A stretch of DNA of 47,285 bases from Escherichia phage phiKP26, in sequence record KC579452. One strand, given 5' to 3'. The first letter of the stretch is position 1. Each line of letters begins with the position of its first letter. The notes beneath the pieces were generated by a model. It ran no database searches. It was not told the origin of the DNA and saw nothing but the letters and a program-made list of their open reading frames with translations. Position numbers and translations under genes: made by a program. Below are positions 2,448 through 46,961 of this stretch, piece by piece.

Positions 2448-2634
2448 ATCACTAGGGAAAGTCAGATGTATTGTGTCTTACAATGATAAGAAGTTCAAAA
2501 CTGGTAAATCTTACAGCATTTTGTCATCACCCGCATATGGTTGGGTTAAATGTGAGTCAGAAGATGGGTGTATAGAGATGGTTAAAGATGGCATTGACAT
2601 TGAGTTTGGTNACTTTGAGGTATTTTATGACTGA
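2440..2634 (+). CDS. hypothetical early protein
   Basis: ORF beginning MTKSLGK; start chosen at the ATG overlapping the upstream stop. Confidence 0.4.
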   Translation: MTKSLGKVRCIVSYNDKKFKTGKSYSILSSPAYGWVKCESEDGCIEMVKDGIDIEFGXFEVFYD

Positions 2635-2920
2635 GCTATCAATCTGGTTCCTGGCTGGCATGTTGACGTGGATTTATTTCGTCGTCATGGCTTGACGAAA
2701 ATGTTAAAAGTGGTTAGTATTAACCACGTAGACGGCAATGACCGTAACGCGCATCGCGGAGATGCAAGCCGATAGCCGGGCTGGATAAAGATACGAGGCA
2801 AATAAAACCGCAGTTAGACATTGAGAACTTCGCGAAGCGAACCAATCAATGCAGTAAGTCGGGCTTGACATTCCGAGGATTGTGAAACCTCCCCGCATTC
2901 GGTAAGCGGGACTCATTCTA

Positions 2921-2996
2921 GTTCTGCTGGCGTAACAGGATAACGCAGAGACCTCCTAAGTCTCAGTTACTGGTTCGAGTCCAGTGCGGAACACCA
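2921..2996 (+). tRNA. tRNA-Arg (anticodon CCT, reads AGG)
   Basis: Hand-folded cloverleaf: 7-bp acceptor stem (gttctgc/gcggaac, one G-U), D stem gcgt/acgc with GG in loop, anticodon stem gagac/gtctc, loop ctCCTaa with U33 and A37, T stem actgg/ccagt, T loop ttcgagt, discriminator A, encoded CCA. Confidence 0.8.
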
Positions 2997-3012
2997 AACA
3001 TGGAGCATCCTA

Positions 3013-3198
3013 GTGAATAACTACGAAGTCCGTTTAACTTCCCGCCTAATGGGTCGGCAATGCAAATCTTGCCAGCAATCCTACGAAGGTAGGTTCATTG
3101 CTAAAAGCCCTGAAGAAGCAGTTGCAGCCGCAAAGGCAGCATTTAAGATTGACCTGACAGTCCACAAAGTCAGCGTTGATAAAGTATCCCTCGTTTGA
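3013..3198 (+). CDS. hypothetical protein
   Basis: 61-aa ORF followed by a rho-independent terminator. Confidence 0.4.
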   Translation: MNNYEVRLTSRLMGRQCKSCQQSYEGRFIAKSPEEAVAAAKAAFKIDLTVHKVSVDKVSLV

Positions 3199-3226
3199 GA
3201 TTGGTCATCTCGCAATGCAGTACTTT

Positions 3227-3250
3227 GCCCTCCTTGTGAGGGCTTTTTTN
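3227..3250 (+). terminator. rho-independent terminator
   Basis: gccctc-cttgt-gagggc stem-loop followed by a T6 run. Confidence 0.7.
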
Positions 3251-3297
3251 CGTCCATAGTCATGGTACAATGACTTTTAAAACAGGAGGAATATCAA

Positions 3298-3813
3298 ATG
3301 TCAGAAGAGAAAAAAATTCACCAGAAGATTGGTAACTTCAAGGAGCTTTACAATAAGAAGTATGGCGACATTGCCAATCTTAAGATTAACCACAGATACA
3401 CTCCCGAGCAGGTATTCGACATGGCTGTAAGGTATTTCAGCTGGGCTGAAGAGCAGGCAATTAAAGCTATCGAGACAGCAAGCTTTCAGGGTGTCGTAAC
3501 GGAAAACCTTGTTCACAAGCCGAGGGTATTTACGATAACTGGATTCCAGCTTTTCTGCGGCGTTGGTCATAATGCTATTAGCAAATGGCGCTCATCACCA
3601 GGATTCGATGAAGTTATGGAGTTCGTCGACTCAGTTATCTTTGAACAGAAGTACCAGTTGGGTGTTAACAACATCGTCAACCCTGGACTTATTAGCAAAG
3701 ACCTTGGCATCGATAAGCCGCAAGAGGTTAACATCAACAACGCTTCTAATGCTGTAGTAAACGACGAGGAAGCAATGAAGTCTGCTCTGGCTTCTGTAAT
3801 GGATAAACTATGA
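3298..3813 (+). CDS. putative terminase small subunit
   Basis: 171-aa ORF immediately upstream of and overlapping the large terminase; call is by position only. Confidence 0.5.
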   Translation: MSEEKKIHQKIGNFKELYNKKYGDIANLKINHRYTPEQVFDMAVRYFSWAEEQAIKAIETASFQGVVTENLVHKPRVFTITGFQLFCGVGHNAISKWRSSPGFDEVMEFVDSVIFEQKYQLGVNNIVNPGLISKDLGIDKPQEVNINNASNAVVNDEEAMKSALASVMDKL

Positions 3814-6702: not shown

Positions 6703-7426
6703 GAGCCAGATTAATCGCAGCCTTTTGGTTGCGGTATCTGAACTTATTGAGCAAATGAAGTTATCTGCAAAGAGGCTAAAAATTGACACAGCGCAGGAGA
6801 TTGAAGAGGAAGATTCAGACCTTTCAGATGTAATCTCAGCGCTGCTATCTGGTTTTGTTTCCACTCTGCCTGCGCTGGCACTAGCAATATATCGTTATAA
6901 CTCGGCGCAATTCCTTAAGGTGGCCAACAACTCCGGAGGTAAGGATAATCCTGTAGTTCTTGCGCTAGGATTGTATGGTATTAACGCGGATGAACCATGG
7001 TGGCTCGACACCAGGAACTCATGGATTGTTGGCACGCAGTTAAGTGCATCAAAGCTGCTAAACAACATCAAGGATGATTTCATAAACAACGCCATTACTG
7101 CGCAGGCTGGTAACACTGTTGACCTTGATGATAGATACCGAATCTACAGAAAGAGAACAGCAAATATCGCTGCTGGAATTACAGGGTCTCTAAACTCAAA
7201 CCTTATGCGGAGAAGGCTTGAAGATGCCGGTGTATCTCAGTATGTTTGGCGTGGTAGACTTGACGACAAAGAGCGACCATCTCACGTTTTGCGTGAGGGG
7301 GTTAGCTTTAAATCAGATGGTTCGGACGCTGGAAAACTTGACGGCCTTGCGATATTCCCCGGTCAGCAATACGGGTGTCGTTGCTGGGCTGTTCCTAAAT
7401 GGGAGAATTTAATTAATGAAGAGTAA
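6662..7426 (+). CDS. head morphogenesis protein (Mu F / SPP1 gp7-like minor head protein)
   Basis: 254 aa after the portal; C-terminal region with the VWRGRLDDKERPSH motif typical of this family. Confidence 0.6.
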   Translation: MNQKTRWMYPQIIESQINRSLLVAVSELIEQMKLSAKRLKIDTAQEIEEEDSDLSDVISALLSGFVSTLPALALAIYRYNSAQFLKVANNSGGKDNPVVLALGLYGINADEPWWLDTRNSWIVGTQLSASKLLNNIKDDFINNAITAQAGNTVDLDDRYRIYRKRTANIAAGITGSLNSNLMRRRLEDAGVSQYVWRGRLDDKERPSHVLREGVSFKSDGSDAGKLDGLAIFPGQQYGCRCWAVPKWENLINEE

Positions 7427-8525
7427 AATGCGTTATGATAGCGCCAAGGTAAAAGCCCGTTTCGATGAGAACGGTTTTCTCGTGGACACCCCAGTGGTTG
7501 CTCGCGTAGGTGTACAAACCTACTATATGCCAGATGGTTCAGAGCGCCGAGAGTTCCGTCCGGCTTCAGAGGTTTTTAAAGCCGATTCGCTGCAAAGTTA
7601 CCAGGGTAAGCCGCTTACTCTTGGTCACGTGGTTGTAAACTCTGAAAATGCTAAAGAGGTGGTTGTTGGTTCTGTATCTGGGTCAGCAATGCGTCAGGAC
7701 TCGGCAGTGATTGTTCCTCTTACCGTTTACGACAAGGAAGCAATTGAGAAGGCCAAGTCTGGCGTTGCTGGTGAGCTCTCTGTTGGCTACAACACTGTTG
7801 ACATTGAGTCTCCTGGCTGGGGTAGTAATGAAACGGGTGAGTACAAGCTTGATGGAGAGTACGCAAGCCAGGATGAGATTCCTGCTGATTGGGTACGCTT
7901 TGATGCGCTACAGACGAATATCGTTGTTAATCATATCGCACTCGTATATAAAGGTCGCGCAGGTATTGCTAAACTCAATCTGGACGCGGAACAGGAAAAC
8001 CCGTATACTGATACCGTTCAATCAAATAAAGAGGATAAATTGATGATTAAGATTAAACTCGATGGCGAACAGGAGTTCGAAATCGCCCCGGAAGTTGCTA
8101 AGCATATCGAAGCTGTTAAGGCTGATGCGGAGCAGGCTAAAGCTAAAGCTGACACTCTGGAAGCTGAGCGCGACGCACTGAAAGCTAAAGTTGATGGCAT
8201 CCCCGCTGAAATAGAAGCTGCTTTAGCCAAAGCTAAGACTGATGCTGACGAAATGGCTGCCCTGGTCGCAGTTGCCGCAGAAGCTGGCGTTAAATGTGAT
8301 GGCCTGGATGCTAAAGCAATCAAAGTTGCTTACGTTAAAGAAGTGTCTGGTATTGAAGTTGCTGAGAAATCTGACGCATACATCGATGCAGCCTTTGATA
8401 TCGCTAAAGATAGTGATAAAATGGCCGAAGCCCGCAAAGCAGTTGCTGCTGCGGATAAATCTGACGCAGCCGACGCGCCTAAGAAATTAGACCCGCGCGC
8501 TCGCCTCGCTAAATTGAAAAAATAA
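7416..8525 (+). CDS. head scaffolding protein (N-terminal globular domain plus Ala/Lys/Glu-rich coiled coil)
   Basis: 369 aa; C-terminal half is strongly helical and A/K/E/D-rich; sits between morphogenesis and capsid genes. Confidence 0.6.
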   Translation: MKSKMRYDSAKVKARFDENGFLVDTPVVARVGVQTYYMPDGSERREFRPASEVFKADSLQSYQGKPLTLGHVVVNSENAKEVVVGSVSGSAMRQDSAVIVPLTVYDKEAIEKAKSGVAGELSVGYNTVDIESPGWGSNETGEYKLDGEYASQDEIPADWVRFDALQTNIVVNHIALVYKGRAGIAKLNLDAEQENPYTDTVQSNKEDKLMIKIKLDGEQEFEIAPEVAKHIEAVKADAEQAKAKADTLEAERDALKAKVDGIPAEIEAALAKAKTDADEMAALVAVAAEAGVKCDGLDAKAIKVAYVKEVSGIEVAEKSDAYIDAAFDIAKDSDKMAEARKAVAAADKSDAADAPKKLDPRARLAKLKK

Positions 8526-11652: not shown

Positions 11653-12118
11653 ATGATTAAGGTAAANGACATAATTGATCTTATAAATGTTGATAGTGAA
11701 AGTGGGGTGATAACATGGAAGCTCAGGGATTCAGGGAGGAAGCAGTGAAATACAAGGTTTACCGGTAAGNGGAGAGACAACGAGTTCATGGGTAGATAGG
11801 ATGATATGGAAAGTTGTTTATGGTGTAATACCTAAGGAGAGAGAGATAGATCACTGAAACATAGAATGATCGAAGAACTCATTATCAATGATTTAGGTGT
11901 GGAAATGAGGTCAGATCAGATNAAACAAAGACTGAAAGACCAACAATACATCTGGGTATAAAGGTGTATCATACTTTAAGCAAACCGATAAGTTCAGGGC
12001 GAGAATAATGCATAATGGTAACGACATGCATATAGGTTACTTCGATACAGCTGAAGGCGCTCACCGGGCCTACATGTTAAAGCAGGCAGAGTTGTGCGGT
12101 GAGTTTGCTAGAGGGTAG
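11653..12118 (+). pseudogene. HNH homing endonuclease with AP2-type DNA-binding domain, disrupted by frameshifts and stops
   Basis: Four frame segments read in order: MIKV.DIIDLINVDSESGVITWKLRDSGRKQ / GETTSSWVDRMIWKVVYGVIPKEREIDH / EELIINDL... / SGYKGVSYFKQTDKFRARIMHNGNDMHIGYFDTAEGAHRAYMLKQAELCGEFA (AP2-like). Confidence 0.6.
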
Positions 12119-15430: not shown

Positions 15431-18400
15431 ATGGCAGAATTTGCAGGTATCACACTTGGCGTTGACGTTCGCCAGGTTGACCAGGGCACAAAGTCCCTGC
15501 AAGANTTTAAACGTGCCAATGAACAGGCGGCAGCTGGAGTTAGCGAGTTCGTTAATGCTGAGCTGGTTGCGAAGAATCAGGCTCGCGACACTGCAAGGTA
15601 TCTTTCTGAGCAGAGAAGTGCTTTTCAGTCGCTTCAGTCTGCAATTGATCCAACAGCTTCAAAATTGCGAAAACTTCAAGATGCAGCAAGTTCTCTTGAT
15701 AAGGCCTTCTCCGCAGGGGTTGTTCCAGAGGCTGAGTTTTACAGGCTTGGTGAAGCATTAGAAACGCAAACAAATAGGTTAATAAGGTCTAGGTCAGCAT
15801 TAACTGAGGAGGGTAGGGCGGCTATAGAAGCTGCAAAAAATAAAGAGTCCGCTGAGAGGCAAGCGCAATCATTTATTAGGTCGCTTCAAGCGCAGGCTGA
15901 TGCAGCGACATTAAGTAGGGATGAGTTCTTAAAGTTAAGGGCGGCACAGCTTGGAGTTAGCGATCAGGCAGCACCAATAATAGATAGAATAACACAGGCA
16001 TCAAGTAACAATACTAACGCTATAGCAAATCAAAGTAGGGCGTTTCAGGCGGCTGGGATATCGGCAGGTCAGTACAATCAGGCCTTAAGGTTCCTTCCTG
16101 TACAGATCAATGATATCACCAGCTCGATTGCTAACGGTATGCCTTTATTTATGGTGCTTACCCAGCAAATACCGCAGATTACAGATTCATTTGGTGGATT
16201 TTCAAATACATTATCAGCTGCGCAAGGTGCAGTTATAGATTATGTATCATCAATAGGAGAGCTGAGAAGTTCATTTGCTGATGTTAAGACTCTTGGTGAT
16301 GAGGCTATCTTAAGGTTTGGTCGTGCTGCAACTATATTTGGTGGCGCGATAGTTGCTTCATTAGCTGTTCTTGGTAAAGCCGCTTACGACTCATTTATTG
16401 AGGTTAGGCAACTTAATAACGCAATAATTGAAACTGGAAGGTCGTCGACTTTATCAGTTGCCGCTATCAAGGATTACGCTGATCAGCTAAATGAAACATC
16501 AAGGGCAACAAAAGGTTCTATTGGTGACATTTACCAGTCGCTAGTATCAAACGGAAGGCTTACTGTTAGTCAGATTAACTTAATCGCTAAGTCTGTTGCT
16601 AACCTTTCAGCTGTTAGTTCAAGGTCTGCGGAATCAATAATATCTGACTTTGATAAGATAGCAAAAGATCCAGTTAAGGGGCTGATAGAGTTAGATAAGC
16701 AATTTAACTTNCTTAGCGAAGGGCAGTTGACCCTAGTTAACAACCTAAANGAAACGGAAGGGCAAACAGCAGCAGTAACAGCAGCTTTAGAAATATTTGC
16801 AGCTAGAAATGAGTCAGTTACAAAGCAGATTGAAGGCTCGCTTACACCTCTTGAATTGGCTTGGGGCGATTTCCGTAAGTTCGTTTCAGACACATGGGAT
16901 GCTATAGGTGACAGGACTATAGGAGCTCTAAACCTATTTACTGACGTTATAGCTGCGACTATTGAGCGAATAAGACTGATAATTGGCACTGGCGACAAGC
17001 TAATAAATGATTTCGTAATACGCGGAATAGAGGCGTTACAAAAGATACCAGGAGCATCTGGCGTTGGTAATGGAATAGCCGAACAACTAAGGAAGGATAA
17101 TGACGCAATAGAAAAGGAAAACATAAGGCTAGCTAAATCTATCGCTGATAGGGATGCAAGGGTTCGCAGGGGCGAGACTGGTTACTTGAGTGTTGGAGAG
17201 GGTTCAGAAAGTCAAACTGGAACTTCTGATAGAGATTCAGAATCAAGAAGAAAGGCTTTGGCCGATGAGATTAAAGCAATTGAGGAGAGAAGTAAAAAGA
17301 CAAAATCTGGAGCAAAAGAAGAGAGGGATTTGACTATAAGTTATGAGTCTGGCGTTCTAGCTCTTCAGGCTCAGCTTAAGGTTCTTCAGGAGCACCGCCA
17401 GATTAGTGATGTTATCAGTAACGAACGCAAGCAGCTTTTTGCGGAGGAAGCTAAGTTTGCAATCCTTAATGAAAGGCTTGCAGACGGAACCATCACAAAG
17501 CAACAGCGATCATTACTGTTGCAGCAGGATAAAATCTTAGGACTTGCTCGCGAGAAGGCTGAGATTGGCGACCAGATTGTGCTGCAAGAAAGGGCCAATA
17601 AACTTCTTGATGACAACATCAAGAAGACTCGGCAGATTAACGCTGAAGCGGCATCAATTAGTGTTGGAGCAGGATTATCTCAGCGCGAAGCGGAAAGGCG
17701 GCGTGAGTTGGCGGCGCTAGAAGCCCAGCAAATTTCTAAAGGTGGCTCCGTAGATGACACTGACTTCCAGGCTTTACTTCAGGCTCGTCAGAATTTCTAC
17801 AATCAGGAAGATGCATTACGTGGTAACTGGCTGGCTGGCGTTAAATCTGCGTTTGCTGAGACGGCTGATGAATTGGCAAACTTTAATCAGATTGGTTCCG
17901 AGCTAGCCATGAGTGCCTTTAACGGATTGACTGACCAGATAACAAACCTGGTAACTACTGGAGAAGCTAGCTTCCGTGAGTTTACCGCATCGATTCTGAA
18001 GCAGATTGCACGCATTGCAACGCAGCTACTTTTAATTAAGGCGATTGAATCAACCATCTCCAGTTTTGGCGGTAGTGGTGGTGCAATTGGCTCTATTGGT
18101 AGCGCATTTGGTTTCGCTTCTGGCGGTTATACTGGAAACGGTGGTAAGTACGAGCCAGCTGGCACGGTGCATAAAGGTGAATTCGTCTTTACGAAGGAGG
18201 CAACCTCAAGGATTGGCGTTGATAACCTTTATAAGTTAATGCGCGGATACGCAAATGGTGGAGTGGTTGGTGCTGGTCCTGGCTATGCGACTGGCGGGCT
18301 TGTTGGTGGAAGTAACGTTAATGTTGGTGGAGTGAATGTTACCGTTCAGACAGGTCTTGGCGGTGGTGGCGGTAATGACGCTAAACAGTTAGAATCTGGT

Positions 18401-18484
18401 ATCAGGGTTATCATCGCGGAAGAGATTACTCAGTCCTTCCAGCAGGGCGGAACGGCTTACCAGTTCTTGCGAGGTTATAGTTAA
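15431..18484 (+). CDS. tail tape measure protein
   Basis: ~1017 aa, largely helical and Ala/Gln/Leu-rich, with a Gly-rich C-terminal segment; canonical position. Confidence 0.85.
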   Translation: MAEFAGITLGVDVRQVDQGTKSLQXFKRANEQAAAGVSEFVNAELVAKNQARDTARYLSEQRSAFQSLQSAIDPTASKLRKLQDAASSLDKAFSAGVVPEAEFYRLGEALETQTNRLIRSRSALTEEGRAAIEAAKNKESAERQAQSFIRSLQAQADAATLSRDEFLKLRAAQLGVSDQAAPIIDRITQASSNNTNAIANQSRAFQAAGISAGQYNQALRFLPVQINDITSSIANGMPLFMVLTQQIPQITDSFGGFSNTLSAAQGAVIDYVSSIGELRSSFADVKTLGDEAILRFGRAATIFGGAIVASLAVLGKAAYDSFIEVRQLNNAIIETGRSSTLSVAAIKDYADQLNETSRATKGSIGDIYQSLVSNGRLTVSQINLIAKSVANLSAVSSRSAESIISDFDKIAKDPVKGLIELDKQFNXLSEGQLTLVNNLXETEGQTAAVTAALEIFAARNESVTKQIEGSLTPLELAWGDFRKFVSDTWDAIGDRTIGALNLFTDVIAATIERIRLIIGTGDKLINDFVIRGIEALQKIPGASGVGNGIAEQLRKDNDAIEKENIRLAKSIADRDARVRRGETGYLSVGEGSESQTGTSDRDSESRRKALADEIKAIEERSKKTKSGAKEERDLTISYESGVLALQAQLKVLQEHRQISDVISNERKQLFAEEAKFAILNERLADGTITKQQRSLLLQQDKILGLAREKAEIGDQIVLQERANKLLDDNIKKTRQINAEAASISVGAGLSQREAERRRELAALEAQQISKGGSVDDTDFQALLQARQNFYNQEDALRGNWLAGVKSAFAETADELANFNQIGSELAMSAFNGLTDQITNLVTTGEASFREFTASILKQIARIATQLLLIKAIESTISSFGGSGGAIGSIGSAFGFASGGYTGNGGKYEPAGTVHKGEFVFTKEATSRIGVDNLYKLMRGYANGGVVGAGPGYATGGLVGGSNVNVGGVNVTVQTGLGGGGGNDAKQLESGIRVIIAEEITQSFQQGGTAYQFLRGYS

Positions 18485-21286: not shown

Positions 21287-21335
21287 TTAGTGTAGAATGG
21301 CACAAATGGTTAAACAAACAACGAGGTTATATGAT

Positions 21336-24300
21336 ATGGCCGATTTGCCAAAGATTTATGGAAGCAAGGGTGGTAGCAAGAAGCCGCACACACCTGTAGA
21401 GCAAGAAGATAACCTGATTTCACTAAACAAGATTAAGGTGCTACTGGCTGTAGCTGATGGAGAGGTTGATTCTAGTTTCTCGCTCAAGGATGTTTACCTT
21501 GCTGACGTTCCGGTGCAAAACCAGGATAACTCATTCAACTATGAAGGTGTTACGGCAGAGTTTAGGTCTGGTACTCAGTCGCAGGATTACATCGCAGGAC
21601 TAGATGGCGCAGCTTCAGAGATTCAGGTTAGTCGTGAAATCAATAATGACACACCTTATATCATCGCAGTCAACAACAGTCAGCTATCAGCAATTCGAGT
21701 CAAGCTGTTCTGGCCTCGACTCGTTAAGCAAGAAGAGAATGGAGATTTAAATGGCACAACATGTGAATATGCAATCGATTTATCAGTTAATGGCTCAGCG
21801 TACACTGAGTATATCAGAGGCGTGGCTAACGGTAAAACTACAACAGGTTACGACCGCAGTATCAGGGTTAACTTACCAGCCGAGTTTAGCAGCGCTCTTG
21901 TTCGTATTAGGAAGTTAACGCCAGACTCAACAAATAGCACCCTGGTTAACGGGATGCAGATCACAACCTATCAGGAAGTAATCGATGCTAAATTCCGCTA
22001 CCCTCTTACGGCACTTGTTTACGTGGAGTTCAGTTCTGACCTGTTCCCTAACGGGATCCCAACTATAGCCATTAAGAAAAAGTGGAAACTTATCCGCGTA
22101 CCGACAAACTACAATCCAGAGACAAGGGCTTATAGCGGCACATGGAATGGAACTTTTAAAATGGCATGGTCTGACAACCCGGCCTGGGTTTTATATGATC
22201 TGGTGGTTAGTCAGCGCTACGGATTGGATCAGCGAGAGCTTGGTGTAGAGATTGATAAGTGGGGTCTGTATGAAGCAGCGCAATTCTGCGACCAGATGGT
22301 TCCTGATGGTAAGGGTGGAATGGAGCCGCGATATACTTGTAACGTTGTCATTCAGCAGAAAGTGGAAGCGTATCAGCTTATTCGTGACATCTGTTCTATC
22401 TTCCGCGGTTTAACCTTCTATGATGGTGAGCAAATCGGGATTGTTGTAGACAGGCCGCGCCAGCCAAGCTATGTGTTCACTAATGATAACGTTGTTGATG
22501 GATTGTTTAACAGGACATTCTCTAGCGACAAGAGCCTTTACACGACAGCCAACGTTCAGTTTGATGACGAGCAGAACAACTACCAGCAGGATGTCGAGCC
22601 AGTATTCGACTTAGAAGCAACACGCCGATTTGGTTACAACCCTGTAGACTTGACTGCAATTGGCTGCGTAAGGCGAAGCGAGGCTAACCGTCGCGGGCGT
22701 TGGTTGCTGAAAACAAACCTTCGCAGTGAAACGGTAACGTTCACAACTGGCCTCGAAGGCATGATTCCTATGATTGGTGATGTAATTGCCGTTAATGACC
22801 AGGCTTGGTCAAGCAACTACACATTAAACCTTTCGGGTCGAATTGTTGAAGCTACAGGTTTGCAGGTGTTCGTGCCATTCGCTATTGATGCTGACCCTGG
22901 CGACAGGATTTTAATCAACAAGCCAGATGGGAGCCCAGAGTACAGGACTATCGCTTCAGTATCTGCCGATAAGTTGACGCTTGAACTGAATACAGCATTC
23001 AGCTTCACACCTCAGCCGGATACGGTATTTGCAATCGACAAGCAGAATCTGGCGTTGCAGCAATACGTTGTGACAGGAATTCAAAAAGCAAACACGGACG
23101 GCGAGGATTCATTCCAGTACAGCATCACTGCGGTGCAGTATGACCCGAACAAGTATGACGAGATTGACTATGGTGTGAATATTGACGACAGGCCAACAAG
23201 TATCGTTGACCCTGACAGGATTTTACCACCTGAAAATATCACCGTTACTAGTTACAGCAAGGTAGTTCAGGGCTTAAGCGTTGAGACGATGGTTATTGGT
23301 TACGACAAGGTGCAGTATGCGAAAACATACAACGTACAGTGGCGCAAGAATAACGGCAACTGGATTAACGTACCTGAGACAGCTAATACCGAGGTTGATA
23401 TTGAAGGCATTTACGCTGGCATCTACGACGTCAGGGTTCGCGCCGTAACTGACCAGAAATCAGTGTCGGCATGGTCAGATATCACGACAGTTAGCCTGAC
23501 TGGCAAGATTGGGGAACCTTCGGAGCCGCCTGTAATTACGGCTTCTGATGATGAGGTTTTCGGGATTAGGGTTAAGTGGGGCTTCCCTACTGACTCAGCT
23601 GATACCGCTTACACCGAGCTTCAGCAGGTTCCTGATAATGGTGACGGAACATATACACCGGAGAACGCGTCACTGCTTACGCTGGTTCCGTATCCTCAAT
23701 ACGAATATTGGCACACCACTCTACCAGCAGGTAACGTGAGGTGGTACAGGGCCAGGATTATTGACAGGATAGGTAACGTATCTCCGTGGACTGATTTTGT
23801 CAGAGGTATGGCATCCGATGATGTAAGTGCGATCATTGGTGACATCAAGGTTGATATCGAAAACTCTGATGGTTACAAGTATCTTCTCCAGAACGCCATT
23901 GATGCAAATACTGACATCCAGAATCAGGCCGAAGCTATAATCGAGAACGCCCTGGCAAATGATACTGACGTACGCGTTATGACAAAGGAGAATCTTAACA
24001 GGAAGGCGGAATATCGCCAGGCAGTAAGTTTGATTGCTGATGAAACTCAGGCCCGTGTGGACGCTCTCACGCAGCTTAAAGCGCAGATTGATGATGAGAT
24101 TGTTGGTCAGATTACGACAATTGAAACCGCACTTGCTACGGAGACCGAAGCCAGGGCTACAGCTGATACTCAATTAAGCTCAAGGCTTGGTGATAACGAG
24201 GCGGCTTTGAATCAGAAGCTTGACTCTTATGCCACGGTCGAAGGTGTTGGTGTTCAGTACGGCGTTAAGCTCGGCCTGAAGTACAATGGGGTTGAGTACG

Positions 24301-24722
24301 GCGCTGGAATGAGCATGGAGTTAACTGGTAGTGGTGGAAATGTTCGTAGTCAGTTTATTTTTGATGCTAACAGGTTCGCAATCAGTAACGGCATTAGTTC
24401 TGGTTCCGGTCAGTGGTCGCTACCTTTCGTTGTGGAGAATAACCAGGTGTTCATTCAGAGCGCGGTGATTCAGGATGGTTCAATTACTAACGCGAAGATT
24501 GGTAACAGGATTCAATCAAACAACTATGTTGCTGGTAGTGCTGGTTGGGCAATTGATAAATCTGGTTTTGCTGAGTTAAGTAACGCTACCGTTCGCGGTA
24601 GTTTGTACGCTAACAATGGTAACTTCGCGTTTAACGGAACCAACAATACTGTCGTAATAAACAATAACGGCATAACTGTTAATTTACCAAATGGAGGTAG
24701 GGTAGTGGTTGGAGTATGGTAA
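21336..24722 (+). CDS. tail tip / host specificity protein (lambda gpJ-like)
   Basis: ~1128 aa; N-terminus MADLPKIYGSKGGSKKPHTPVEQEDNL resembles J-family N-termini; position after the I-like gene. Confidence 0.8.
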   Translation: MADLPKIYGSKGGSKKPHTPVEQEDNLISLNKIKVLLAVADGEVDSSFSLKDVYLADVPVQNQDNSFNYEGVTAEFRSGTQSQDYIAGLDGAASEIQVSREINNDTPYIIAVNNSQLSAIRVKLFWPRLVKQEENGDLNGTTCEYAIDLSVNGSAYTEYIRGVANGKTTTGYDRSIRVNLPAEFSSALVRIRKLTPDSTNSTLVNGMQITTYQEVIDAKFRYPLTALVYVEFSSDLFPNGIPTIAIKKKWKLIRVPTNYNPETRAYSGTWNGTFKMAWSDNPAWVLYDLVVSQRYGLDQRELGVEIDKWGLYEAAQFCDQMVPDGKGGMEPRYTCNVVIQQKVEAYQLIRDICSIFRGLTFYDGEQIGIVVDRPRQPSYVFTNDNVVDGLFNRTFSSDKSLYTTANVQFDDEQNNYQQDVEPVFDLEATRRFGYNPVDLTAIGCVRRSEANRRGRWLLKTNLRSETVTFTTGLEGMIPMIGDVIAVNDQAWSSNYTLNLSGRIVEATGLQVFVPFAIDADPGDRILINKPDGSPEYRTIASVSADKLTLELNTAFSFTPQPDTVFAIDKQNLALQQYVVTGIQKANTDGEDSFQYSITAVQYDPNKYDEIDYGVNIDDRPTSIVDPDRILPPENITVTSYSKVVQGLSVETMVIGYDKVQYAKTYNVQWRKNNGNWINVPETANTEVDIEGIYAGIYDVRVRAVTDQKSVSAWSDITTVSLTGKIGEPSEPPVITASDDEVFGIRVKWGFPTDSADTAYTELQQVPDNGDGTYTPENASLLTLVPYPQYEYWHTTLPAGNVRWYRARIIDRIGNVSPWTDFVRGMASDDVSAIIGDIKVDIENSDGYKYLLQNAIDANTDIQNQAEAIIENALANDTDVRVMTKENLNRKAEYRQAVSLIADETQARVDALTQLKAQIDDEIVGQITTIETALATETEARATADTQLSSRLGDNEAALNQKLDSYATVEGVGVQYGVKLGLKYNGVEYGAGMSMELTGSGGNVRSQFIFDANRFAISNGISSGSGQWSLPFVVENNQVFIQSAVIQDGSITNAKIGNRIQSNNYVAGSAGWAIDKSGFAELSNATVRGSLYANNGNFAFNGTNNTVVINNNGITVNLPNGGRVVVGVW

Positions 24723-29103: not shown

Positions 29104-29392
29104 AAATAAATAAAGCTGTTCCAAAATAAAAGGGGCCTAAAACCCTAAATAAAACAAAATATGATATGAATTGGGACATATTCTCTGATATNNNGATTGG
29201 TAAGGCGGCGTGGAANTATAGAGAAGAAATACGGCAAGAGTAAATNGGAAGATATAAAGGATAAAAAGGAGGAAAGATTAGAAATGAAGAGATGGAGAGC
29301 GTAAGCATAGGAATTATCGAGCTACCTNCTTTGCTAGCGAGGCGCAAATTAGCTGGTATGACGAAGCATTTCAGGAAGGAAAAGTTATCTCT

Positions 29393-29632: not shown

Positions 29633-32348
29633 ATTGTGACGTTACATCACCATTCAAACTCAAAANTACTGATTGTTTNGTCAAATCAACACCACCTTTA
29701 AGCGAATAGTATCTTGAAGCGCAATAATCAGACTCATCTGAATAGCTGCCAACGTAAACACCAAAGCCATATCCAGAGCAAGCTACATCACCAGCGCCTT
29801 GACCTGAATACATGGTTACATAGTTACCAGCTGTTGTTAGTATAGGTCTGACATCAATATCTATATACTGAGAATCAAATGACCTTCTAACTCTAAATCC
29901 AGTATTCAGGTTTAAGATGCTCCACCAAACCTTACCAGATACATCAAAACCAAGAGCAATATTGTAAGTACCACCATTGACCATTCTTGATGAGACTGGC
30001 AACACACCTGATAAAACTCTTGTTTCACCTGATGCTGATATTAACAATGAGACACTGTGTTCTCCTGATGCCATCACGTTATACTGCAAGTAAAGAGCAT
30101 TACTATTAACTCCAAAACCAGTCCCTATAGCTATAAGGTTAAAGTCTTCAGCAACAGTTATGGTCGGCGATATATTGCATGTAGCGGTGAAACCTAGTGA
30201 CGGGTCAAATCCAGTGCATATAATCTTATCTTTATTTGCCTGTGAAAGCCTTAGCCAATATTGCTGCCCAACTGATGATGCCGCTGCGGCGAATACTGGT
30301 GTATTAGAGACCCCATCAAAAGCTGAAGTGTCGTTTGCTGGCTTAATTCTTGTCTTCCTTTTGTCTATCAGTCCGTTTATCTTCAGGTTTCCTGAATACT
30401 CAGCAACATAGTTAGTGTCCCCTGAGAAATTTGGGCCAAAGTAACCAGATTCAACAACCCCATCGATCACAACATCAGATCTTGAGTCAAGGAATCTGAA
30501 GTTGCCAGCGGAAGTTGGCCTTCCATCGCCATTGTTAGATACATAGTTAAGCCCAACAAAACCATAGATTCTTACAGAGCTATTTGAAAACGAAACGTTA
30601 TAATCTCTGTAGTTTGAGTTTATGCTGTTCCTGTTACTATTTAATCCATTAAATACCACATTTCTAGAGTTTACAATTCTAACACCGTCACCACCGCAAT
30701 CCTGCGCCTCTATAGCTGACATGGTGATGTTTTGGCAGTTATCAATCAGGATGCCATAAGCATCATCAAGCTCATTATAAGCCGACCAACCCGACCAAAT
30801 AAACTTACCGCCAACAATCCTACAGTTTCCGGCATTCCTAAGTATTAGACAATTTCTTCCACAGGTGTTTACCTGTATGTTATTCCATGTGAAGTCTGTT
30901 GTTTCGTTAATCAATCCGCCTTTTTTNATGTGCTGAATAAGAACATCATCAAGAACAGGAGAGTAGTTACCAGCAGCAACGAAAATTCCGTAAACATCAA
31001 ACCCAGCAATGTGAGTGTTTCTTATCGTTAAGTCCCTCCTAGGGTCAGCACCAGTGTTGAATGGGTAATTGGTTGATAACCCAGTCGGCGTAGGGATGTA
31101 AATCCCAGCAGTACCATCAGTAAACGCCGTGTCTTGCTGGGCTCCAGTGCCGTAAAGAGCAATACCTTCAATATGAATGAGCGAGCAAGAATCAGAAACC
31201 TCAATTAAAGAGCCAATTGATGAACTAAGCTGAGTTATTCTTGACTTGTGCTTGCCAAAACCAATTATAGAGCAAGATTTATTTCTCATTACCAGGTTTG
31301 ATGCCATGTAGTCGCTATCAAGCTTTAATGCCAGCCCGGAGTCTAGGATTTGCTGTATCTGTGTCGTTGAGTCTGATGTCGATGACTTAATGGCCCCAAG
31401 TTCGCAAGGCGACAGCTCCCCGCTACAGATTCTTTCCCAGTAATAACCTGTACTTGATTCAAAAACCAATCCTGAAGATAATCCATATGATAAAGATGAC
31501 TCCGGCTTACAAACAAAGAACCCACCACCATAACCAAGACCACCAATGTAAGAATCACAATAGACAACCTCTAAGTCATAAATTCTGGCAGAGTTTGTCA
31601 TTGCTGATACTGATTCAAACCTTCTTGTGTAATCCTGTTGAATCCAAAAACCAACTCCAATACCACCTGTAGACTGTGGTGATGAGTTTTGTGGTATGGA
31701 TTTTGGAACGCTACCAGACCAGTAATAAACCGAAACATGATTGTCATTAANGTAAATTGCAGGCTGAGTTCTTGAGTTTATTTCTCCACCATTTGAGAAA
31801 TCAACTACAAGAGCAGATGACACAGAAGCCGCAGCAGAGCTTGCTATTGTAGCTGAAGAGGAAGCCGAGTTAGCGCTACTTTCAGCTAACTGCCTATCAG
31901 AAGATACCTGATCTTTGTCAGAAGAAACTTGAGCAGCATCAACAGCAACTTGCTGAGATTGCATGTTGACATTATTTACGCTTTGCTGGAAAGAATCAGA
32001 ATCAAATTGATTAAAAGCATCAACTGCCGCTGCAACCTCTGTTTCACGGGACTGATAATAACGAAGTGTCTCAGCAACGTCCTGAGCAAGACCTTGGACA
32101 GTAATTCCGTCATGAGCAAGGATTGAGTACTGAGTCCCAGCTGGCGCAGTAAAACCTTTATCATTGAATACACGAATCTCTGTATCGCTTAAAATCTCAG
32201 CGATAGTAACAATGCTTGTCGGGGTGGTGTTAAAAATCATTGTTGCGCCAACTCGGATTAGCGTTAGTGGTTGCCTCCACGTGGTGCCAACACCAGTTAC
32301 AGTTCCGTCAGCTGCAAGCGATGCAGTTCCAGCGTCATAAATTGCCAT
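29631..32348 (-). CDS. tail fibre / tailspike protein with probable beta-helix (depolymerase-like) central domain
   Basis: ~905 aa; N-terminal fibre-anchor-like domain, Ser/Ala-rich linker, long Asn/Gly/Ser-rich repetitive beta region; stop placed at a TNA codon at 29631-29633. Confidence 0.65.
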
Positions 32349-38947: not shown

Positions 38948-39022
38948 CACAAATAGTCAAGAAACTACCAGAAAAAGCAGATGGTGGCAATTCAAACAAA
39001 TGAAAAAGCTAGATGAATNNGA

Positions 39023-46389: not shown

Positions 46390-46961
46390 TGTTTGATTTC
46401 AACGAGGATAAGTTAACTGATGACCAGGTGATGGAAGTCGCCAGGCAAGATAACCTGCCGCCACTTCGTGTGGCAATCAGTACTAATGGATACCGCCAAT
46501 CATTCAATTTCTGGCCCAGCGCCGAAGAGATGCTGTGCGTCAAGTTGAGCTACAAATACGGTGTCGTAGTTAGCAGGATTAGCCGCCATGGCTGGAATGG
46601 AGTGGTTGGCATTCGATCTCTATACGAGGCAATNCGAAATGTCCAGCCATTCGTCGGGCGCGAAGGGATTATGCATGACCTGACAATTAACATCATCCCA
46701 GAACTACAAGAGNCGGGAATTGTTNGCCTCATTGGCGATAAGATTTATGTTCATCCGGCCCTGGTTGAGATGGATAAGGACGACGTGCAAAACTGGTGCA
46801 GTCAGTGCCGATCCGACGTGCCACGCTCAAACTACGTGCCACCGCAAACAACAATCCATGGCTATAATGCCGATGAGGTGGAGAAGGCCATACAGTTCTA
46901 CCGGAAAGCGAAAGCTCTCCGAAAGGGGAAATTTAAAAAAAATGAACCATCTATCAATTAA
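46389..46961 (+). CDS. short paralogue of the 529-aa P-loop protein, lacking the ATPase core; 3' end runs into low-quality sequence
   Basis: N-terminus MFDFNEDKLTDDQVMEVARQDNLPPLRVAISTNGYRQS matches the N-terminus of 41400-42989; a later block (VVGIRSLYEA...LIGDKIYVHPAL) matches its C-terminus. In the cleaner repeat copy the ORF ends at 473. Confidence 0.5.
   Translation: MFDFNEDKLTDDQVMEVARQDNLPPLRVAISTNGYRQSFNFWPSAEEMLCVKLSYKYGVVVSRISRHGWNGVVGIRSLYEAXRNVQPFVGREGIMHDLTINIIPELQEXGIVXLIGDKIYVHPALVEMDKDDVQNWCSQCRSDVPRSNYVPPQTTIHGYNADEVEKAIQFYRKAKALRKGKFKKNEPSIN
46542..46922. repeat. Direct repeat copy B (matches 66-446)
   Basis: Same as copy A; after 46922 the sequence degrades instead of continuing as 447 onward. 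Confidence 0.85.

Follow-up and report, generated by a model that had tools for sequence, protein, structure and literature searches.

A tRNA-Arg(CCU) gene within a conserved structured leader upstream of the small terminase subunit gene of Escherichia phage phiKP26

The sequence of Escherichia phage phiKP26 (KC579452; 47,285 nucleotides (nt), one strand, here called the window) carries a gene for tRNA-Arg(CCU) at positions 2921-2996 of the plus strand. Our analysis confirmed that this is a genuine tRNA gene whose cloverleaf is under purifying selection, and that it has a promoter-to-terminator module of its own immediately upstream of the gene for the small terminase subunit (terS). It seems likely that the phage tRNA is functional and that, produced from this unit, it supplements a scarce host tRNA for the translation of late genes rich in the arginine codon AGG. 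With somewhat less confidence, we suggest that the tRNA is a swappable cassette in a structured leader of ~150-200 nt that is shared across Drexlerviridae including T1, is apparently undescribed, and would represent either a novel cis-regulatory RNA or a small RNA that arises by processing.

The original prediction, which was made from the sequence alone, placed a tRNA-Arg(CCU) at this site and named tRNA predictors and a count of AGG codons as the means of checking it. Both predictors gave high scores. ARAGORN returned exactly one tRNA in the window, a tRNA-Arg on the plus strand with the predicted coordinates and the anticodon CCT at 2955-2957. The Rfam family RF00005 covers 2921-2993 over model positions 1-71 of 71 with 57.6 bits against a gathering score of 29 (E = 6e-10), and zero non-standard pairs were flagged in this match. 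The tRNA sequence is present once in the window. The cloverleaf is the minimum-free-energy structure of the 76 nt, and its folding energy lies only modestly below that of shuffled sequences (z = -1.8; 9 of 200 shuffles were equally stable). Thermodynamics alone is thus weak evidence for a tRNA, and it is the comparative evidence that is decisive. Across 11 homologous phage tRNAs, 99.6% of the stem cells are paired, compared with 26-52% in controls in which the pairing partner was slid, and 11 of the 21 stem pairs have changed on both sides.

The description of the fold as a near-canonical cloverleaf proved fair, as the departures from the textbook form are limited to a U5-G68 wobble pair and a 4-nt variable loop. 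The universal tRNA bases U8, A14, G18-G19, U33, G53-T54-T55-C56, A58 and C61 are all in place. The sequence also reads A20, the anticodon C34-C35-U36, A37, a T-loop GTTCGAG, the discriminator A73 (position 2993) and an encoded CCA (2994-2996). In E. coli, the identity set of arginyl-tRNA synthetase (ArgRS) consists of A20, C35, U or G at position 36 and A or G at position 73. The phage tRNA carries each of these bases: its D-loop AACAGGAUA puts A20 directly 3′ of G18-G19, C35 and U36 are given by the anticodon, and A73 is the discriminator. All 11 aligned homologues have A20 and C35-U36, with A or G at position 73.

The window represents a T1-like siphophage of the genus Rogunavirus (Drexlerviridae), with 99.2-99.6% identity to C119 and phiJLA23 and ~95% identity to JK06 and Rogue1. 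The annotations of Rogue1 (3387-3462), BECP10, AKS96, AHP42, AHS24, Sf12, Sd1, phiEB49, Opt-719 and many more list the homologous gene as tRNA-Arg, and it occupies the same site there, just upstream of terS. In the closest record, C119 (99.8% over 2650-3300), the tRNA sequence is present and its annotation is absent. Both the tRNA and its rare-codon interpretation are already known for this phage genus. Kropinski et al. described in Rogue1 an 'arginyl-tRNA ... recognizing the rare codon AGG' (PMC3496638), and Niu et al. (2014) reported one arginyl-tRNA in each of AHP24, AHS24, AHP42 and AKS96 (PMC4070988). The tRNA itself is therefore nothing new, and the practical value of the finding lies in the correction of C119-type annotation.

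A host origin of the tRNA was considered and rejected. Among 5,426 E. coli genomes, no match extends beyond half of the gene (maximum coverage 49%), let alone over 80% or more of it, and the best matches have 84-86% identity over 34-37 nt. The 35-nt core from the anticodon to the T arm had no exact match in 185,579 bacterial and archaeal species genomes. As judged from these searches, the tRNA appears to be a gene of the phage lineage, neither a recent capture from the host nor an attachment (att) site.

The statement that AGG is rare in the host was borne out. It makes up 8 of 9,592 codons in 34 ordinary E. coli K-12 genes (0.83 per 1000; 1.5% of arginine codons) and none of the 3,228 codons in the K-12 ribosomal-protein operons (0 per 1000; 0% of arginine codons). 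For the phage, 75 coding sequences of C119 were mapped to the window, and codons were counted in the 71 that mapped without internal stops. AGG accounts for 150 of the 13,556 codons (11.1 per 1000; 23% of arginine codons), which makes it the top arginine codon of the window genes, at a frequency ~13-fold above the host sample. Its use differs between gene blocks. The packaging and virion block has 15.2 AGG per 1000 codons (31% of arginine codons) and the lysis genes have 16.3 (29%), compared with 4.4 (9%) in the replication/recombination block and 2.4 (5%) in the minus-strand block g48-57. The heaviest users are the genes for the tape measure protein (30 of 62 arginine codons), a J-like tail fibre (24 of 54), a second tail fibre (12 of 37) and the large terminase subunit (terL; 11 of 32). 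In the window, the tape measure gene spans 15431-18484 and a tail fibre gene spans 21297-24722. It is thus true that the late genes are AGG-rich, except for those of the most abundant virion proteins.

To compare codon usage across relatives, 80 loci around terL homologues were retrieved, codons were taken from open reading frames (ORFs) of at least 150 amino acids (aa), tRNAs were located, and 60 relatives were grouped. Relatives with tRNA-Arg(CCT) at the locus (n = 6) showed a median AGG share of arginine codons of 0.256 (range 0.18-0.30), and AGG exceeded AGA in five of them. Where a homologous tRNA-Arg(TCT) occupies the same slot (n = 7), the median was 0.143 for AGG and 0.179 for AGA, and AGA was at least as frequent as AGG in five of the seven. 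In the 47 relatives without a tRNA, T1 included, the median AGG share was 0.056 (range 0.03-0.13), and the preference between AGG and AGA was mixed. Many of the compared loci share a G+C content of 0.44-0.46. These data show robustly that an AGR-reading tRNA accompanies AGR-rich genes. A match between the CCU tRNA and a preference for AGG is found only in the window's own clade.

Several observations weigh against codon compensation. The tRNA groups largely coincide with clades, so that the nominal Mann-Whitney p (~1e-4) overstates the independence of the data. Two independent CCT/TCT contrasts are available, since TR1 (Braunvirinae) and BUCT-XGG-1 (Nouzillyvirus) carry the CCT form as well, and neither contrast reveals a shift specific to the anticodon. 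The AGG share of arginine codons is 0.10 in BUCT-XGG-1 compared with 0.14 in the 89%-identical ESCO41, which carries the TCT form, and it is 0.20 in TR1 as well as in Rtp (TCT); genome-wide, TR1 favours AGA. Many successful relatives, T1 for example, do without any tRNA. Finally, the most abundant virion proteins shun AGG, with one of 11 arginine codons in the major capsid protein, none of seven in the major tail protein and two of 26 in the portal protein, as would be expected if AGG remained a slow codon despite the phage tRNA. The original prediction had suggested compensation of codon usage for late genes. The enrichment of AGG in packaging, virion and lysis genes is in favour of this suggestion, and the two anticodon swaps without a codon shift are not. 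Codon compensation is thus a correlative reading that is supported in silico.

The region upstream of the tRNA had been described as non-coding between 2700 and 2920, with a possible promoter or a second, degenerate tRNA. A sigma-70-type promoter was indeed located at 2692-2720 on the plus strand, with the -35 element TTGACG (2692-2697), a 17-nt spacer and the -10 element TAGTAT (2715-2720). The consensus scan alone was not significant (5 sites compared with 3.2 expected), and the promoter is recognised by its conservation. Both hexamers are invariant in nine Rogunavirinae. Equivalent hexamers stand at the same position, with 17-nt spacing and an unrelated spacer sequence, in Rtp-type phages (TTGCAT/TAATAT), ESCO41 (TTGACA/TATCTT), TR1 (TTGCAT/TATTAT) and locus L043 (TTGACG/TAACAT), and T1 carries TTGACC/TAGTAT at 18-nt spacing. 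Every examined relative that bears a tRNA or is of the L043 type keeps such a pair at 17 nt. Transcription would start at about 2726-2728, within the conserved motif CACGTAG. The original prediction placed the gene in an early region; a promoter this close to the sigma-70 consensus would allow it to be expressed as soon as infection begins. No usable transcriptome or timing map was found for this region in the literature.

Between the promoter and the tRNA lies a structured non-coding 5′ leader of ~194 nt (2727-2920, plus strand), which contains the hairpins HA, HB, H1 and H2 and, in its middle, a variable block at ~2816-2872. Positions 2721-2815 are nearly invariant across five genera and are more conserved than the flanking genes. 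HA (2732-2745; ACGG-CAATGA-CCGT) is followed by a conserved AACG (2746-2749). In the 21 tRNA-bearing phages, the HA stem occurs in seven versions (for example GCCAC/GTGGC, CCATC/GATGG and CTAGC/GCTAG), always with AACG next to it. Of its stem cells, 24 of 28 are paired, and the element is also found in the leaders of relatives that lack a tRNA. HB (2751-2765; GCATC-GCGGA-GATGC) is predicted by RNAalifold. In tRNA-less relatives, it appears with the stems GTGAG/CTCAC, GTAGC/GCTAC, GCCAG/CTGGC, GCGGC/GTCGC and GCAGC/GCTGC and with a conserved loop of the GCGAUA type.

The hairpins closest to the tRNA are H1 (2875-2891; GAGG-ATTGTGAAA-CCTC) and H2 (2892-2910; CCCGC-ATTCGGTAA-GCGGG), the loop of the latter ending in a conserved (C/G)GTAA. 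Five fully paired versions of the H1 stem were found (GAGG/CCTC, GAGC/GCTC, AGGC/GCCT, GCTG/CAGC and GTCG/CGAC), a somewhat favourable figure because the best-pairing register was chosen. For H2, 16 distinct sequences showed 100% of cells paired, changes on both sides in four of the five pairs and a covariation score of 0.66 compared with 0.13 in shuffles, with slid controls pairing at 21-48%; these values are also somewhat favourable, since H2 in tRNA-less loci was picked by a regular expression demanding perfect pairing. RNAalifold, applied to ten tRNA-less leaders without such selection, showed compensatory changes in 9 of 12 pairs. MAFFT placed gaps in the hairpin stems, and the stem counts were therefore taken from in-register extraction and from a loop-trimmed ungapped alignment. 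The leader matched no Rfam family, even in a permissive scan of 2600-3300 at E <= 10, and no description of it was found in the literature. A scan of IMG/VR with the 14-mer TATTAACCACGTAG gave 97 stretches, nearly all of them chance matches, and the only real ones were already-known relatives.

Other readings of the upstream region were rejected. Of the claims made for 2700-2920, the absence of coding and the presence of a promoter are supported, and the second, degenerate tRNA is not: ARAGORN found none, and the permissive Rfam scan of 2600-3300 returned only the known gene. The idea is further weakened by the nature of the spacer, a structured leader found in tRNA-less relatives as well. In Sd1, an extra tRNA-Trp sits after H2 and is not derived from the spacer. 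A protein-coding spacer was also rejected. The sole plus-strand ORF of at least 30 aa is a GTG-started 35-aa frame that overlaps a 22-codon mini-ORF; a 16-codon ATG frame has no start codon in e4/1c; a 70-aa minus-strand ORF crosses the variable block, where length differences are not multiples of three; and the window lacks a counterpart of Rogue1_0013. It is unlikely that the leader is a packaging (pac) site, since the depositors of TR1 placed the packaging start ~3.2 kb further upstream and since the covariation of the stems points to an RNA rather than to a protein-bound DNA site.

The mini-ORF just mentioned (2627-2695, plus strand; 22 codons, MTELSIWFLAGMLTWIYFVVMA) is unannotated and hydrophobic. 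It overlaps the stop of the preceding gene, and its own stop codon overlaps the -35 element of the tRNA promoter. It is conserved in Rogunavirinae and in Rtp-type phages with changes mainly at the third codon position, and it probably encodes a real small membrane peptide. A Pfam search with it gave only a sub-threshold match to DUF6341 (E = 0.0015).

Downstream of H2, a 10-nt linker (ACTCATTCTA, 2911-2920) forms the junction to the tRNA cassette. The order after ACTCATTCTA is the tRNA, 16 nt that include a Shine-Dalgarno GGAG (3002-3005), and a GTG at 3013 that opens the last gene of the unit, a small ORF of 61 aa with a CxxC motif and a stop at 3198. Homologues of this ORF were found in 51 of the 80 terL loci. 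It is annotated with 61 aa in Rogue1 and with 50 aa from ATG 3049 in C119, and GTG 3013 is most likely the start. No significant Pfam match was obtained for it, though some records label it DUF3667. The unit closes with an intrinsic terminator at 3227-3249 on the plus strand, in which a T run comes after the stem-loop GCCCTC-CTTGT-GAGGGC (3227-3243). Rogue1, Sf12, Sd1 and phiEB49 share the stem and a T7 run and differ only in the loop; the N at window position 3250 is a T in relatives. On the 3′ side of the terminator, a conserved TGnTACAAT element resembling an extended -10 (TGGTACAAT, 3263-3271) stands ~27 nt before the terS start and is probably the promoter of the packaging operon. T1-type phages have been described as organised in promoter-to-terminator 'transcriptons' that depend on host RNA polymerase (PMC11447400), and the unit in the window fits this organisation.

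Comparison of the loci indicates that the tRNA is an optional part of this unit. Relatives without a tRNA retain the promoter, the start motif, HA, AACG, HB and H2, and their homologous linker AACCATTCA leads directly into the Shine-Dalgarno sequence and ATG of the small CxxC ORF. A homologous leader including H2 is present in T1 (locus L026, 7623-7745) and also in locus L043 (4305-4461). A strict pattern for the 5′ domain of the leader was found in 33 sequences (the window and 32 of the 80 loci, T1 included), compared with two in shuffled loci. The common layout is a sigma-70 promoter, the start motif CGTRRAC, HA, AACG, HB with its GCGAUA-type loop, variable modules, H2 with a loop ending in CGUAA, a linker and a Shine-Dalgarno sequence. 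Across phages, the slot after H2 contains nothing, Arg-CCU, Arg-UCU, Trp(CCA) plus Arg (Sd1) or Arg plus Val(AAC) (phiEB49), and an Arg anticodon that reads AGR is present in all 21 tRNA-bearing phages. In Sd1, the tRNA-Trp(CCA) (L003, 566-639) is inserted after H2 and 5 nt before the tRNA-Arg. In phiEB49, the tRNA-Val with its unusual anticodon AAC (L004, 615-691) follows 1 nt after the tRNA-Arg. An odd 93-nt 'tRNA-???' call in Opt-719 (L011, 429-521) is possibly a decayed tRNA.

The tRNA and the leader have also been combined in different ways. TR1 (L190/L195) carries a tRNA body of the window type, with 4 differences in 76 positions that form two compensatory pairs, behind an Rtp-type leader, and ESCO41 (L055) carries a TCT tRNA behind hairpins of the Sf12 type. 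CCT-type tRNA bodies are thus found in Braunvirinae and Nouzillyvirus (TR1; BUCT-XGG-1, L189/L196) behind leaders of other types. These mosaic combinations (TR1 compared with Rtp, L018; BUCT-XGG-1 compared with ESCO41) imply recombinational exchange of a cassette and not point mutation of the anticodon, and the Arg-CCU and Arg-UCU tRNAs behave as exchangeable alleles. The tRNA marks a conserved structured leader beside the packaging genes of the T1 family, for which regulation of the CxxC gene or of terS, or a role as a released small RNA, are candidate functions. Cleavage by RNase P at an inserted tRNA would uncouple the leader from its gene.

We infer that the tRNA is transcribed, processed and charged and that it may benefit phage yield. 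Host sigma-70 RNA polymerase would start at the 2692-2720 promoter and produce a transcript of ~520 nt that comprises the structured leader, the tRNA, the small CxxC ORF and the terminator. RNase P would then cut at the 5′ end of the tRNA, and host nucleases would trim the 3′ end to the encoded CCA. After charging by the host ArgRS, the phage tRNA would add to the scarce host tRNA-Arg(CCU), the product of the single-copy gene argW, and would read AGG in late genes. The predicted beneficiaries are the genes for the tape measure protein, the tail fibres and the large terminase subunit and the lysis genes.

Among the alternatives, an unlikely one is that the phage tRNA serves as a spare in counter-defence, replacing host tRNA-Arg that has been lost to anticodon nucleases resembling colicin D, PrrC/RloC or VapC, or to others. 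Isoacceptors of tRNA-Arg are the targets of colicin D. Evasion of nucleases is a current general hypothesis for phage tRNAs, and colicin D is named there among the E. coli tRNases (van den Berg et al. 2023, PMC10264068). The tRNA body is far from that of argW (identity at 53 of 79 positions) and absent from ~185,000 species genomes, so that enzymes recognising the stems might miss it. On the other hand, the altered anticodon loop predicted by such a role was not found, the loop CUCCUAA and the A38-G39 junction being identical to argW. In addition, codon supply accounts directly for the high use of AGG, concentrated in late genes, whereas the nuclease model does not.

Slightly less probable still is a role in which the tRNA acts mainly as punctuation, a processing signal that splits the leader from the mRNA of the CxxC ORF and so alters the stability or translation of one or the other part, with decoding being secondary. 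The position of the tRNA is in line with this: it lies inside the 5′ untranslated region (5′-UTR), 10 nt past H2 and 16 nt short of the start of the ORF, in a place where the leader of tRNA-less relatives is contiguous with the Shine-Dalgarno sequence, and the same slot holds the various tRNAs listed above. However, pure punctuation would not need an AGR-reading Arg anticodon in 21 of 21 phages. It also leaves aside the selection on the ArgRS identity bases and the full cloverleaf, and the AGR-rich codon usage that goes with the tRNA.

We regard it as improbable that the cassette is a neutral hitch-hiker, spreading by recombination among co-infecting T1-like phages with no measurable benefit. 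The mosaic distribution seen in TR1 and ESCO41, the independent anticodon swaps that brought no shift in codons, and the many relatives without a tRNA would all be compatible with neutrality. Against it, all four stems show strong purifying and compensatory evolution across ~25% divergence, with the functional bases invariant. No decayed copies were seen among the 21 phages, and the phage depends heavily on AGG. An integration-site remnant, that is, a tRNA-like attP/att fragment of a temperate ancestor, is effectively refuted: argW is a known prophage attachment site, abutted in K-12 by CPS-53 and its integrase, but the annotation of the 99.6%-identical C119 genome lists no integrase, the E. 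coli genomes searched hold nothing beyond short partial matches, and the gene is a complete tRNA with its own promoter and not a 3′ fragment. Supplementation of the host tRNA for late genes is retained as the probable role of the phage tRNA.

The locus offers a natural series at similar G+C (no tRNA, Arg-UCU, Arg-CCU, Trp+Arg and Arg+Val) that could be used to weigh codon compensation against the other roles proposed for tRNAs of phages, a matter of continuing debate. This series already shows recent anticodon swaps that are unmatched by codon usage.

Some further features of the window were recorded. A direct repeat of ~390 bp (66-455 and 46541-46930) is 94% identical, with mismatches that are largely Ns, and has the appearance of a terminal redundancy or of a circularly permuted genome that was wrapped around in assembly. 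Of the 149 Ns in the window, 50 fall within its last 2.3 kb. Compared with C119 (L005), the 'endonuclease' gene g27 is absent, the HNH endonuclease gene g41 is largely replaced or deleted, and g5 is matched at 85% only, with frame disruptions in the window; the only frequent Arg codons of g5 are AGR (15 of 16 Arg codons). These differences lie at window positions ~29286-29289, 38969-38993 and 11754-12118, corresponding to 21437-21931, 31791-32282 and 3801-4331 in C119, and are typical of presence/absence variation of homing endonucleases. The prohead protease gene (7416-8525, plus strand) is contiguous in the window and split across the ends of the C119 record (g75 and g1), which seems to be ~77 nt short at this junction.

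The nearest known systems are the arginyl-tRNAs of other Rogunavirus phages (Rogue1, JK06, AHP24, AHS24, AHP42 and AKS96), whose gene is the same as that of the window and likewise sits at this position upstream of terS. The flanking 651 bases of these loci are 94-99% identical to the window, the Rogue1 tRNA differs by one base, and there is no difference of substance. A homologue, tRNA-Arg(UCU), is carried by ESCO41 and by Rtp-type phages and other Braunvirinae; that of Rtp is identical to the tRNA of the window at 58 of 77 aligned positions. It occupies the same slot after H2 and belongs to a promoter-leader-ORF unit like that of the window. It differs in its anticodon TCT, which reads AGA and, by wobble, AGG, in its length of 75-78 nt and in a different D arm. 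The host tRNA-Arg(CCU) from argW shares with the phage tRNA the anticodon, A20, A73, the decoding task and the 7-nt anticodon loop with its adjoining junction, whereas all stems differ and only 53 of the 79 aligned positions are identical.

The tRNA clusters of T4 and T5 and the ileZ-argN-argO cluster of Stx lambdoid phages also supply tRNAs for AGR and other codons that are rare in E. coli, and they have classically been explained by codon compensation. The T4 tRNAs share their transcripts with small stable RNAs. Whereas these clusters consist of several tRNAs, here a single tRNA is found in a small (47-kb) virulent siphovirus, inside the 5′-UTR of a protein gene. For the leader, the 3′ETS-leuZ sponge of E. 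coli, a functional RNA released from the spacer of a tRNA precursor, offers only a lead: in both cases, a conserved, structured and transcribed spacer would be linked to a tRNA and could be released by tRNA processing. Unlike 3′ETS-leuZ, the phage leader predates the tRNA or is independent of it, as it also occurs in relatives that carry no tRNA.

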